A stretch of 64,000 nt of DNA from Minisyncoccia bacterium (GCA_044341565.1 JBIIRM010000002.1:65812-129811), one strand, 5' to 3'; shown: positions 17,932 to 21,482, counted from the stretch's first letter. Notes: generated by a model from the letters alone, not told the origin. Program-made: numbers and translations.

Positions 17932-19878
17932 ATGAAATTATCATATAAAATTTTATCAATAGCTTGTCTAATATGGGTATTCCCATTGTTTACTTATGCG
18001 AGTACCCCGAGTTTTCCTAATGGAATATTAATAAAATCTACTAATAACCCCAAAGTGTATTATATAGATAATGGGCAAAAGCGTCCCATTGAGTCTCCTA
18101 ATATGCTTCGATCCCAATTCCGTTGGGAAGATGTTGTTATCACAACTCCCACAGAAATTGAGGCTTTACCAACTGGTGCTGAGATGACATATCGGGATGG
18201 ATCATTGCTATCTAATAGAGGGGTAGTTTATGTTATATCTGATGGGCAGCGGCGTCCTATAGAGTCACCGAGTACTTTTTTGCAAAAAGGATATAAATGG
18301 TCTAATGTAATTGCGGTGAGTGATGCTGAGCTTGCGCCTCATTCTCAGGGTGCTATATTGACTAGTTCTTCTAATCATCCAAATGGAAGTTTGTTATTAA
18401 GACCAGGAGGGGAAGTATATGTGATTAAGGGTGGACAGAGACGATATATTCCAAGTCCTTTGATATTTGAAGCTCGCTATAGATGGGAATCTCTGATTGA
18501 TGTGTCAGAATCATATCTGAATACTTATCCACAAGGAGTAAATGAATTTTATCCCGATGGATTATTGATATCTAGTGCTACGGGAGTATTTATGATGCAG
18601 AATAATGTGAGGCAGCCTATTACTTCTCCTGCTGTTTTTGAGAGCTATGGTCTTAATTGGGGACAGGTAAGGAGAGCTACAGATTTTGAATTATCTATTA
18701 TCCCAGAATCAGGAGCATTTAATAGGGTGAAGCCATATAGAGAGGGATCTCTAATTGGAGCTAGAAGTGGAGCTGTGTTTCGGGTTAATAATAGTGGTAA
18801 CTTACAGCCTATTATAAGTCCTAATATCTTTGTGAGCCAAGGTTATGATTGGAATTCTGTGCTAAGATTACCTGATAATGTCATTAATCAATATTCACGA
18901 GCAGGAAGAGTTGGGTTTAGAGATGGGGCTTTGATATCTTTTGGAGGTGGCGTATATGTAATTGAGGGAGGATTGAAACGAGGTATTCCAAGTCCTGCAA
19001 TATTTGCTGCGAGAGGATATAGTTGGGGAAATGTGACTGCGGTCTCTGAAGATGAATTCAATTCTAATGCTATGGGATCTGCTCTTTCAGATATTCAAGT
19101 TGCTAGTTTAGATGGATATACTATTCCTGCTACAAGTGGGAGAACCGCTCGAGAACAACATTTAGCTCGAGATTGTAATGAAACCAGTGGCGATCATTAT
19201 GGAAGAGCAGGTACTCCACTTTCAGCCCAAAATGGATTATTGACAAGTGGTGGAGCATTTGCTTTACCATGTCCAGGAGGAAGTCTCAATTCGAGTTATG
19301 CTCCATTTTCAGTGGAAGATGAGAAATATTATATTACTATGAGATGGAATTATGTAAGATGGTATGAGGCTACGAGTACATTAACACAGAATATTGATGC
19401 TAATGCAAATAGAATACCATTGGCTAATATATCCGATTATCGTGATCGGAATACAGGATGGGTGATTATTAATGGAGAAATTATTGCTTTTAATGGTAAA
19501 GATGGGAATAGTCTTATTGTCTCTCAGCGAGGTGTGGATAGTCCTACTATTGCTGCTAGTCCAAGGGCACATAATTCAGGAAGTACGGTACAAGAAGTAT
19601 ATGAGTTTAGAACAGATGTCTGGAGAGGACGTACTCGTAGTACAGATTTTAATAATACTGCTAAAAATTGGCATAGAGGACGTAAAGTATTGGTAACAAA
19701 TCCCACCAATGGTAGGAGACTTGTTACCACTATTATGGAATCTGGTCCTGCTATATTTACGAATCGTGTATCTGGGCTTTCTCCCGAGGCTATGCTTGCT
19801 CTAGGAGTAGTTACTGATGATACATTACAATATGGATTTATGATTGATCAGTCAATTCCAGTAGGACCCTTGCCTTAA
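17932..19878 (+). CDS. secreted protein: signal peptide, six ~60-aa tandem repeats (putative cell-wall-binding module), C-terminal RlpA-like double-psi beta-barrel domain
   Basis: Signal peptide MKLSYKILSIACLIWVFPLFTYA. Repeats of pattern GxLI..x..VYxIxxGQxRPIxSPxxFxxxGYxWxxV. C-terminal GRKVLVTNPTNGRRLVTTIMESGPAIFTNRVSGLSPEAMLALG resembles the RlpA/expansin DPBB core. Confidence 0.6.
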   Translation: MKLSYKILSIACLIWVFPLFTYASTPSFPNGILIKSTNNPKVYYIDNGQKRPIESPNMLRSQFRWEDVVITTPTEIEALPTGAEMTYRDGSLLSNRGVVYVISDGQRRPIESPSTFLQKGYKWSNVIAVSDAELAPHSQGAILTSSSNHPNGSLLLRPGGEVYVIKGGQRRYIPSPLIFEARYRWESLIDVSESYLNTYPQGVNEFYPDGLLISSATGVFMMQNNVRQPITSPAVFESYGLNWGQVRRATDFELSIIPESGAFNRVKPYREGSLIGARSGAVFRVNNSGNLQPIISPNIFVSQGYDWNSVLRLPDNVINQYSRAGRVGFRDGALISFGGGVYVIEGGLKRGIPSPAIFAARGYSWGNVTAVSEDEFNSNAMGSALSDIQVASLDGYTIPATSGRTAREQHLARDCNETSGDHYGRAGTPLSAQNGLLTSGGAFALPCPGGSLNSSYAPFSVEDEKYYITMRWNYVRWYEATSTLTQNIDANANRIPLANISDYRDRNTGWVIINGEIIAFNGKDGNSLIVSQRGVDSPTIAASPRAHNSGSTVQEVYEFRTDVWRGRTRSTDFNNTAKNWHRGRKVLVTNPTNGRRLVTTIMESGPAIFTNRVSGLSPEAMLALGVVTDDTLQYGFMIDQSIPVGPLP

Positions 19879-19880
19879 TT

Positions 19881-21482
19881 ATGAGGGGGATATTATATTT
19901 GCGATCAATATTATGGGTGATTTTTTTTGGAATAGCTTTGATATTCCCACGACCCACTTTTGCGAGTACTCCCAATATACTGTCTCGCAATATTTGGGCA
20001 ACAGCAGATGATAATACCTATACCCTCAATAATTGGCCACCAAATGCTGGGAATACCTTACAAGTTCGACGTATTTTACTTCATGATACGGCAATAGCGA
20101 GCTTTAATAGTGATTCTCTTGACTCAAGACAAATTATTCGTTCAATATTCACCACACATGCCCGTAATAATGGTTGGGGGGATATAGGGTATAATTATAT
20201 TATTGCTCGAGATGGGAGTATTTATCAGGGGAGAATGGGGCAAAACGGAGTAAGAGGAGCTCATTTATATGTGAATAGTACCGGAGATAATTTTAATTAT
20301 CAAAGTATTGGAATATCTCTTATAGGTCGCTATGGTAGTGGCTATGCTACTGTACCAGAAGCGATGAAACAATCATTAGCCAAATTATCTGGATGGCTTA
20401 GCTCAGTCAATAGTATTGCTCCAACTGACTTTGTTACTGAACCAGTATGGAATTTTTATACAAAAGCATATACCTCTAATTATACTGGATTTCGGCTTAC
20501 TGATCATGGAGCAGTAGAGGCGGGAAATGGAGATACTAATATGGTAGATATGAGCTGGCTTCGGAATCGAGCTCAAGAATGGAAACAATATTATGATAAT
20601 TCGGTATACCGAGATGATAATGGGAGATTATATACTATTCAAAATGGTATAAAAGAGATCACAGCTAATGCGGGAGGTAAAAATATTATTGGTATTAACT
20701 CAACTGAATTAGCTTTATTCCCTGATAATACAAATATTAGAACTTTTCCTAATGGTTCATTATTAAGGACAGATACTGGAGTTGGGTATCTTGAAGATGG
20801 GAAAATTCGACCATTAGTAAATCCTGATGTATTCAATTCTCGATTTAAATGGAAAGATGTATTAGATGTCACACGTGCCGAGTGGGATTCTTATCCTTTG
20901 GCTTCAGCTCTTACATTCAGGGAAGGAATGTTGGTAAGAGAACGAAATAATCCCGATGTATATGTAATTAGTAATCAGCAAAGAAGACATATTCCATCTC
21001 CAATAACTTTTGAAGCCTTGGGGTATAAATGGAGTAATATTACTATTATTGCTGATGGGACTCTTGCTATTTCTCATCCAATTGGACCTGTTATGCAATC
21101 AAGTCCATATCCAGATGGGACATTATTAGTTAATAGAGATAATCCAACAGGTATAGAGGTATTAGAAGCAGGGAAGCGGCGACCAATTCCAAGTCCAGAA
21201 GTATTCGACACTCAATATAATTATAAGGATTTGGTATATATATCAGGGTCTGAATGGAATTCTTATCAGCAGGGACCAGCGGTATATTTTCGTGATGGAG
21301 TGATTCTAAGAGCCTCAGGTAGAGGGGAAGTTTATATCATGTCTGAGGGCAAAAAACGCTATGTATCCTCTCCAGGGGTATTTGAAGGATTAGGGTATAA
21401 ATGGAATAATATTATTGTTGTTTCAGCAGAGGGTCTGGATAGTGTATCAACTGGAAACCCTATTAGTGACAGTATGTTATAG
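19881..21482 (+). CDS. N-acetylmuramoyl-L-alanine amidase (Amidase_2/PGRP) with four C-terminal ~60-aa repeats
   Basis: Signal peptide. Amidase_2 region HDTAIASF...GWGDIGYNYIIARDGSIYQGR...GAHLYVNSTGDNFNYQSIGISLIG. Same repeat family as the upstream gene. Confidence 0.75.
   Translation: MRGILYLRSILWVIFFGIALIFPRPTFASTPNILSRNIWATADDNTYTLNNWPPNAGNTLQVRRILLHDTAIASFNSDSLDSRQIIRSIFTTHARNNGWGDIGYNYIIARDGSIYQGRMGQNGVRGAHLYVNSTGDNFNYQSIGISLIGRYGSGYATVPEAMKQSLAKLSGWLSSVNSIAPTDFVTEPVWNFYTKAYTSNYTGFRLTDHGAVEAGNGDTNMVDMSWLRNRAQEWKQYYDNSVYRDDNGRLYTIQNGIKEITANAGGKNIIGINSTELALFPDNTNIRTFPNGSLLRTDTGVGYLEDGKIRPLVNPDVFNSRFKWKDVLDVTRAEWDSYPLASALTFREGMLVRERNNPDVYVISNQQRRHIPSPITFEALGYKWSNITIIADGTLAISHPIGPVMQSSPYPDGTLLVNRDNPTGIEVLEAGKRRPIPSPEVFDTQYNYKDLVYISGSEWNSYQQGPAVYFRDGVILRASGRGEVYIMSEGKKRYVSSPGVFEGLGYKWNNIIVVSAEGLDSVSTGNPISDSML

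Follow-up and report, generated by a model that had tools for sequence, protein, structure and literature searches.

Tandem repeats with a predicted EccB-type fold on three secreted proteins of a Minisyncoccia bacterium

Why should unrelated secreted enzymes of one bacterium carry the same tandem repeat? The question is raised by a 64,000-nucleotide stretch of DNA from a Minisyncoccia bacterium (GCA_044341565.1, JBIIRM010000002.1:65812-129811), which we refer to as the window. In the products of three of its genes, p1, p2 and p3, an initial annotation had noticed the same module of about 60 amino acids (aa) in six, four and four copies, placed on unrelated catalytic domains of secreted proteins. 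Both observations were confirmed, the first at the coordinates given in Table 1. Our analysis gives the module the modelled fold of the EccB repeat domain of type VII secretion systems (T7SS), and suggests that the arrays hold the enzymes in the cell wall. Read from the sequence, all three proteins start with a signal peptide, ending TYA/S, TFA/S and SFA/E, respectively; that of p1 has a basic n-region, a hydrophobic core and the cleavage motif T-Y-A. The window has a GC content of 34%, and the earlier assignment to an organism of Candidate Phyla Radiation (CPR) type holds, as the best genome matches of p2 are metagenome-assembled genomes (MAGs) labelled 'Parcubacteria group bacterium' (91% identity), 'uncultured Candidatus Saccharibacteria' (91%) and 'Candidatus Paceibacteria' (89%), and the named protein relatives are from Minisyncoccia and Parcubacteria. 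Parcubacteria and Paceibacteria are generally considered host-dependent.

The repeat and its fold

The three repeat sets are homologous, as had been proposed. Models built from the repeats of a single protein found those of the other two with E-values of 1e-37 to 1e-82; the p2 array was recovered by the p1-only and p3-only models and the p3 array by the p1-only and p2-only models. Single copies were recognised with hidden Markov model (HMM) independent domain E-values (iE) of 6e-21 to 3e-26 in p1, 2e-22 to 2e-24 in p2 and 2e-22 to 4e-25 in p3. The copies are of two alternating types, A with the pattern PNG...R[FY]RW[EK]D and B with R[DE]G...GLGYKWSN, and the well-conserved positions include a G-x-K-R hairpin and G-Y-x-W. 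Across the proteins, copies that occupy corresponding positions are frequently mutual best matches (the second repeats of p1 and p2 are 49% identical), and therefore the arrays were inherited or moved as A-B-A-B blocks and not amplified gene by gene. In p2, the linker that leads from the amidase domain to the repeat array (aa 243-288, 20607-20744) also resembles a decayed fifth repeat (DNGRLYTIQNGIKEI...INSTELALFPDNT), with an HMM iE of 8 that is not significant.

No dedicated Pfam or NCBIfam model fits the repeat region of p1, p2 or p3, and p1 as a whole matches no family in either library (Pfam at E<=1). With the same searches, no match to LysM, SH3b, CW_binding_1/2, SLH, SPOR, PG_binding or LGFP was seen in the three proteins, in line with the initial annotation, which had set the repeat apart from LysM, SH3b, CW_binding and SLH.

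Structure prediction gave a confident model. For the p1 array, AlphaFold2 with 50 homologues reached a pLDDT (predicted local distance difference test) of 95.1 and a predicted TM score (pTM) of 0.85, and DSSP on this model read each of the six units as b1-b2-b3-a1-(short 3-10)-b4-a2, i.e. four strands and two helices. EccB1 repeats consist of a four-stranded antiparallel sheet and two helices in about 50-57 aa (PMC4769845). When the p1 array was compared with the PDB by Foldseek, the top 11 chains all came from EccB1, EccB3 or EccB5 of M. tuberculosis and M. smegmatis, with E-values between 1e-7 and 1e-4 and probabilities of 0.92-1.0, and these were the only significant fold matches. The global TM score against EccB is only about 0.15, because the EccB repeats are non-contiguous and packed round a core domain whereas those described here are contiguous. 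The likeness to EccB was further supported by the Pfam whole-EccB model PF05108 (T7SS_ESX1_EccB), which matches 22 of the 149 best family representatives with E-values down to 8.8e-17. The two members inspected for the position of the match were P0062 (aa 494-558 on HMM positions 184-249, 39 bits) and the CHAP-containing P0124 (aa 358-416 on 183-243, 34 bits; the cut-off is 27 in both cases), and in each the matching stretch lies inside a repeat and corresponds roughly to R2. PF05108 gives no match to p1, p2 or p3 themselves at E<=1, the repeat profile meets genuine mycobacterial EccB with a marginal sequence match only, in register with R2, and repeat profiles fail to reach the EccB chains in the PDB by sequence. 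A motif is common to both, EccB 'YLVdrnGRHaIdl...alPaGepl' and repeat profile 'VYlIenGkkRpIps...ypeGdpl'. Both P0062 and P0124 are clearly non-T7SS proteins that exceed the gathering cut-off of PF05108 through their repeats alone, and such matches probably lead to wrongly assigned 'EccB' proteins in metagenomic genomes.

Taken together, the module as modelled adopts the EccB repeat fold, and homology to that domain is very probable. It is thus not without known relatives: the fold is that of EccB R1-R4, PF05108 matches relatives of the three proteins, and a phage family, phrog_9616, matches the repeat as well. EccB R1-R4 (PF05108; PDB 3x3m/3x3n, 4kk7, 5cyu, 6sgy, 7nps) are like the repeat in unit size, in the order of strands and helices and in their extracytoplasmic location. 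EccB differs in being ESX-encoded and membrane-anchored by one N-terminal transmembrane helix, with a central core domain and no catalytic domain. Its repeats, four in number and not adjacent, are packed in the pairs R1/R4 and R2/R3, whereas here contiguous arrays of four to six copies sit on secreted enzymes. Hence p1, p2 and p3 are not EccB proteins themselves, since a transmembrane helix, a core domain and an ESX context are all missing; no ESX components were found among the neighbour genes examined near them, a genuine ESX locus (L002) serving as contrast. A reading as an NHL or beta-propeller repeat was rejected. It arose from 'Pizza' designer propellers and PknD, for which many 22-aa hairpin matches, each insignificant by itself, added up to an E of 9e-5; the likeness is confined to the first 24 residues (a beta-hairpin) and was lost with a broader profile, and the Foldseek propeller probability was <=0.3. 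In the papers listed by the literature searches, the repeat is nowhere described outside T7SS and EccB is nowhere linked to CPR bacteria. InterPro has entries, derived from CATH/Gene3D, for 'EccB repeat 1' and 'EccB repeat 3' domains, and these proteins may therefore already be annotated in part.

Partners of the repeat and the amidase-glycan cleaver pair

The repeat belongs to a large family. An exhaustive profile search of 1.84 billion representatives (clusters at 50% identity) gave 7593 clusters at E<=1e-3, 3468 at E<=1e-10 and 626 at E<=1e-30. This search and one with the 360-aa array were used instead of a word-indexed search with the 59-position repeat profile, which was too insensitive and found three proteins only. 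Four copies are commonest (73 of 205 proteins; range 1-17), most frequently in the order A-B-A-B. Partner domains were counted by Pfam on the 149 best family representatives, among which peptidoglycan hydrolases dominate: Amidase_2 is present in 26, SpoIID in 22, Peptidase_S8 in 17, Peptidase_M23 in 5, Glucosaminidase and RHS in 3 each, CHAP and CAP in 2 each, and NlpC/P60, VanY and SNase in 1 each, with assorted Ig-like, PA14, LGFP and SH3_3 domains as further partners. The family also has members in Actinomycetota, such as a protein with SpoIID and four repeats (P0049) and an Acidimicrobiia protein (P0048). In the nearest relatives of the p1 array, from Parcubacteria and Minisyncoccia MAGs, a C-terminal micrococcal nuclease replaces the p1 domain, or the array forms a stand-alone five-repeat secreted protein. 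The closest homologues of the six-repeat p1 array (P0004-P0023, 49-66% identity) end in a micrococcal/staphylococcal nuclease (PF00565) rather than a DPBB-like (double-psi beta-barrel) domain. The exchange therefore points to domain swapping on a conserved array and to a probable surface-retained nuclease in Parcubacteria.

Phages carry free versions of the repeat. Streptomyces phage BillNye encodes a 137-aa two-repeat protein directly after a 2027-aa minor tail protein (L004 5971-6384; NC_042105.1 43372-43785), and the same segment of about 120 aa was matched in 19 Streptomyces phages of about 121-131 kb. The viral structure library BFVD likewise holds two-repeat proteins of Rhodococcus and Streptomyces phages (E 3e-7 and 1e-4). 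In phrog_9616, a phage family of unknown function, the 118 profile positions correspond to one A-B repeat pair; the profile matches BillNye gp190 (137 aa) with E 2.8e-52 and the p2 array twice (E 1.1e-23, the best stretch covering positions 3-117 of 118). In contrast to p2, these phage proteins are free-standing, consist of two repeats without a catalytic domain and adjoin tail genes; the BillNye type could be a tail accessory protein that binds the host wall. The module is thus mobile, extracytoplasmic and heavily, though not exclusively, tied to murein hydrolases. What is new is the use of a structurally known repeat in mobile tandem arrays, which are attached to hydrolases, proteases and nucleases that are secreted, in a large family without a name of its own.

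In p2 the array is attached to an amidase. Pfam Amidase_2 (PF01510) matches with E 1.9e-12 (48 bits, cut-off 26), sequence matches in the PDB range from 1e-10 to 4e-5 and include PGRP-S (1.2e-10) and T7 lysozyme (3.5e-5), and LLHDTA at aa 66 and GYNYII at aa 103 line up with the His and Tyr region of the PGRP/T7-lysozyme type. In p3 it is attached to an S8 subtilase (PF00082, E 8e-35, aa 118-354; 120.9 bits, cut-off 21.8) with the D/H/S motifs LIDTGV (aa 123), GHGTF (aa 156) and GTSIS (aa 316). An identity of p3 as a mycosin was rejected, the TIGR03921 score being 126 against a cut-off of 279.

The C-terminal domain of p1 was harder to assign. Its AlphaFold2 model is of moderate quality (pLDDT 76.5), falling below 50 at domain residues 148-154 and 174-190, in the region of an insertion of about 90 aa. 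The best Foldseek matches are all DPBB folds, namely PA4485 (4avr), kiwellin, loosenin, p97-N and aspartate decarboxylase, but their E-values are 5e-3 to 5e-2 and they extend over 58-74 columns only; PA4485 has E 5e-3 and 28% identity over 63 columns. The sequence profile of the domain found a single chain in the PDB, again PA4485, with E 0.83. In the alignment, p1 kvlVTNpkNgkklvasilEsGPa..gRVsGLspeAmlaLG stands opposite PA4485 VRVTNLDNRRSVVVRINDRGPF..GRIIDVSRKAAEGLG, and the RlpA-type motif VTNLDNRRSVVVRINDRGPF..GRIIDVS..AA..LG faces VTNPxNGkklvasilESGPa..GRVSGLSpeAm.aLG of p1. ESGP of p1 aligns with DRGP of PA4485, so that p1 has Glu where PA4485 has Asp, which we take to be the RlpA catalytic residue. 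Neither p1 nor its C-terminal domain alone matches Pfam DPBB_1 (PF03330) at E<=1. The RlpA/DPBB call of the initial annotation is therefore kept as probable: fold and profile agree on PA4485, but the evidence is weak and DPBB_1 unmatched. Homologues of the domain are few. The motifs DGYxxPAxSG, YYITMRW, VLVTNPxNG, ESGPA and GRVSGLSPEAM are common to them, and in some a CHAP or Peptidase_C39_2 domain is fused on. The insertion is missing from P0059, P0060, P0061 and a Berkelbacteria fusion protein (L031). Sequence searches of the PDB with the insertion gave spurious summed designer-Kelch matches only, and its likeness to phage baseplate and tailspike chains is weak (root-mean-square deviation about 5 to 13 Å), so that no assignment was made.

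Stronger evidence for the role of this domain than its fold comes from genomic linkage. All four of the closest genomes (L005-L008) retain the p1-p2 pair, with p1 orthologues that have the same architecture and adjoin the amidase gene. More distantly, in Moranbacteria and Parcubacteria (L019, L022-L025; 25-29% identity to p2), a repeat-less gene similar to the p1 C-terminal domain lies immediately upstream of the gene for Amidase_2 plus repeats; in several loci, these among them, a separate two-repeat open reading frame (ORF) is found nearby on the opposite strand. In a Candidatus Berkelbacteria MAG (L031, 1009-4776), Amidase_2, 12 repeats and a p1-C-terminal-like domain are fused in one protein of 1256 aa. 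In 11 other Patescibacteria loci (L009-L013, L015-L017, L020, L026, L036) the p2 homologue is a single chain of Amidase_2, four to eight repeats and SpoIID. Altogether, of the roughly 30 loci with a match across both amidase and repeats, at least 21 link the amidase-plus-repeats gene to a glycan-cleaving partner, which strongly supports the amidase-glycan cleaver pairing proposed earlier. SpoIID digests denuded, i.e. peptide-free, glycan strands (PMC6635528), and the DPBB domain of RlpA needs denuded strands, to which its SPOR domain directs it (PMC6895207). The conserved coupling therefore makes strip-then-cut the most economical reading of p1 and p2, with SpoIID or a DPBB-like domain apparently filling the role of glycan cleaver by turns. 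Compared with the SpoIID/SpoIIP-type machinery of the 11 loci, the lineage of the window has no SpoIID in the p1-p2 unit and the p1 DPBB-like domain instead, an apparent non-homologous replacement. In its organisation p1 resembles RlpA, a DPBB lytic transglycosylase that works after septal amidases: it combines its probable DPBB-like domain with a non-catalytic repeat array and is genetically coupled to an N-acetylmuramoyl-L-alanine amidase. In p1, SPOR is unmatched and the EccB-type array is the sole non-catalytic module; the order is reversed, with the targeting module N-terminal, and the DPBB-like domain has extra N-terminal elements besides the insertion.

Proposed function of the array and its alternatives

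We propose, with a probability of about 0.6, that the array is a non-catalytic envelope-binding module that holds secreted enzymes in the wall. The unit would be an ancient, mobile, non-catalytic extracytoplasmic module, of which blocks of four to six copies, based on the A-B di-repeat, became attached to three Sec-exported enzymes. The array would bind an envelope polymer, which may be the glycan strand of peptidoglycan or else a polysaccharide attached to the wall, and thereby retain the enzyme in the wall with its catalytic domain placed at the substrate. In p2, Amidase_2 would remove stem peptides, and the DPBB/RlpA-like domain of p1 would next cleave the denuded glycan strand, a division of labour as in AmiC/RlpA and SpoIIP/SpoIID, and p3 would be a subtilase retained at the wall. 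Ligand binding, the identity of the ligand, a lytic transglycosylase activity of p1 and the choice between own and host wall are all points that we infer.

A wall-targeting role, which the initial annotation had put forward, is the best-supported reading, given the dominance of peptidoglycan hydrolases among the partners, although the module also occurs on enzymes that do not act on the wall. The following weighs against the proposal. Its partners also include the non-wall enzymes SNase (micrococcal nuclease), S8, CAP and RHS, and therefore the module is not substrate-specific for murein enzymes. A tblastn search of cultured phages with the array found small two-repeat proteins only and no endolysin carrying the repeat. 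Finally, the DPBB assignment of p1 covers about 60 residues (Foldseek E about 5e-3, profile E 0.83, pLDDT 76.5).

In its role, the array can be likened to SPOR on RlpA and to the cell-wall-binding domains of autolysins and endolysins. With the classical wall-binding repeats (LysM, SH3b, CW_binding_1/2, SLH, SPOR, PG_binding_1, LGFP, GW) it shares the logic of tandem non-catalytic units on secreted hydrolases of monoderm-type bacteria, although there is no sequence match and the fold is of the different, EccB-repeat type; a few family members also carry LGFP or SH3_3. Another parallel is PlyCB, a subunit of the streptococcal phage endolysin PlyC (PDB 4F87), since this small, phage-encoded, non-catalytic subunit tethers a lytic enzyme to the wall, and actinophages likewise encode free two-repeat proteins of the present family. 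PlyCB is also the nearest structural neighbour reported for EccB R1, with weak similarity (PMC4769845).

Possibly, the repeats do bind the wall, their ligand being not peptidoglycan but a secondary cell-wall polysaccharide or an S-layer glycan. PlyCB, likened to EccB R1, binds the polyrhamnose backbone of the streptococcal wall carbohydrate and not murein (bioRxiv 10.1101/2021.03.19.436156), and with a nuclease and a protease carrying the same array, what the enzymes have in common may be retention at the surface and not the presentation of a substrate. We regard this as the better of the alternatives, at odds of roughly one in four.

A somewhat more doubtful explanation is that the array binds no ligand and acts as a rigid spacer or stalk, or as an oligomerisation scaffold, which projects the catalytic domains over a set distance through the wall or S-layer or multimerises them, much as the periplasmic domain of EccB serves a structural purpose in the T7SS. 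The pTM over six repeats indicates a fixed geometry between repeats and not beads on a string, and the authors of the EccB1 study take the elongated, continuous hydrophobic core of the protein as a basis for proposing that it spans the envelope as a structural element (PMC4769845); the functional heterogeneity of the partners and the variable copy number are in line with this. However, a pure spacer does not explain the strong bias towards peptidoglycan hydrolases, the free two-repeat phage proteins and the stand-alone five-repeat secreted proteins have nothing to space, and conservation of the G-x-K-R hairpin and the G-Y-x-W positions is not required for spacing.

That the genes form a host-directed toolkit, in which the repeats recognise a host wall and amidase and glycan cleaver breach it for attachment or nutrients by an episymbiotic CPR cell, we consider unlikely, for while the Parcubacteria/Paceibacteria affiliation, the phage versions beside a tail gene (which would suit the recognition of a foreign cell surface) and the secreted nuclease of the p1-array relatives (which fits scavenging) agree with it, the same module and architectures occur in Actinomycetota, the organism makes its own murein, as the class-B penicillin-binding protein (PBP) and Mur ligase genes in the window imply, and this needs remodelling by amidases and lytic transglycosylases, pairs of an amidase with SpoIID or RlpA are classical self-wall division machinery (PMC6635528, PMC6895207), and the genes lie among housekeeping neighbours, so that the host-directed lytic function suggested by the initial annotation found no specific support.

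Gene setting and implications

The features of the three genes are collected in Table 1. Only 2 nt separate the p1 stop from the p2 start, and the two genes are therefore probably co-transcribed, the candidate promoter being the promoter-like site 5' of p1. Around p1 and p2 lie genes for a photolyase-related protein, dCMP deaminase, a DUF6671 protein, nitroreductase, tRNA-Ser, tRNA-Ile, FolD and serine hydroxymethyltransferase, and p3 follows directly on the genes for the class-B PBP and the Mur ligase (49515-52617), so that it may belong to a cell-wall/division gene cluster. No mobile-element, secretion-system or toxin context was found among the genes examined around p1, p2 and p3, and Rfam returned only four tRNAs in the whole window.

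Table 1. Coordinates of p1, p2 and p3 and their features in the window
Feature	Position	Strand	Description
Promoter-like site 5' of p1	17895..17923	+	ATGATA-17-TATAAT; consensus scan, 10/12 matches, pattern match only
p1 gene	17932..19878	+	648 aa; signal peptide, 6 EccB-type repeats, probable DPBB-like C-terminal domain
p1 signal peptide	17932..18000	+	aa 1-23, MKLSYKILSIACLIWVFPLFTYA/S; read from sequence
p1 repeat array	18013..19092	+	6 copies, order A-B-A-B-B-B
p1 repeat copies	18013-18189, 18190-18375, 18376-18549, 18550-18735, 18736-18915, 18916-19092	+	
p1 C-terminal domain	19093..19875	+	aa 388-648, 261 aa; probably DPBB/RlpA-like, putative glycan-strand cleavage
p1 C-terminal motifs	DGYTIPATSG 19111-19140; YYITMRW 19327-19347; KVLVTNP 19684-19704; ESGPA 19738-19752	+	conserved
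Insertion within p1 C-terminal domain	19381..19647	+	aa ~484-572; ~90 aa, lineage-specific
p2 gene	19881..21482	+	533 aa; signal peptide, Amidase_2 (PGRP/T7-lysozyme type), 4 EccB-type repeats
p2 Amidase_2 catalytic domain	20058..20429	+	aa 60-183, Pfam-matched part
p2 repeat array	20745..21479	+	4 copies, order A-B-A-B; 20745-20915, 20916-21107, 21108-21287, 21288-21479
p3 gene	52828..54639	+	603 aa; signal peptide, Peptidase_S8, 4 EccB-type repeats
p3 repeat array	53926..54636	+	4 copies, order A-B-A-B; 53926-54102, 54103-54291, 54289-54462, 54463-54636

Other features of the window were noted in passing. The region of about 450 nt from the p2 stop to tRNA-Ile (21483-21930; the tRNA at 21931-22007) lacks an Rfam match and any ORF of more than 61 aa, and two terminator-like hairpins were seen on the minus strand (21624-21609 and 21842-21826). 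The DUF6671 protein (16092-16940, minus strand, E 6e-67), encoded between dCMP deaminase and tRNA-Ser, has C-terminal CxxC pairs. At 55633-57489 (plus strand) a type IV pilin-like protein carries an N_methyl motif (PF07963, E 9e-7), behind which come about nine tandem units of about 50 aa, 'DGSSIVTGSF.GT..FG.QP.L...G..D.FIVKYD.NG.V.WAK', a repeat family distinct from the EccB-type one; its annotated start overlaps the glyceraldehyde-3-phosphate dehydrogenase gene and the true start is probably internal (MKNKKYTNKKGFTLLE).

If the repeat binds the wall, this would provide a functional label for thousands of 'hypothetical' secreted proteins of Patescibacteria and Actinomycetota, and would define a family of about 7,600 clusters (50% identity) without a Pfam or NCBIfam model of its own. 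It would also lend guilt-by-association support to the idea that the periplasmic domain of mycobacterial EccB binds peptidoglycan, and offer a tractable soluble system to test it. For annotation there is a hazard, as non-T7SS proteins exceed the PF05108 cut-off and 'EccB' mislabels are possible. A wider and quite tentative idea is that the EccB-type repeat is a phylum-spanning glycan-strand-binding domain not recognised before, possibly specific for denuded glycan, and the functional counterpart of SPOR in the monoderm-type lineages Patescibacteria and Actinomycetota and in their phages. If true, the long-unexplained periplasmic domain of EccB would anchor the type VII secretion machine to peptidoglycan, and the Patescibacteria proteins made of Amidase_2, repeats and SpoIID or a DPBB-like domain would be self-contained strip-then-cut machines riding along the strand. 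An amidase joined through the array to a glycan cleaver, either SpoIID or DPBB-like, is in any case a recurrent design in these ultrasmall bacteria, and it bears on how CPR cells divide or attack walls as well as on the engineering of lysins for Actinobacteria.

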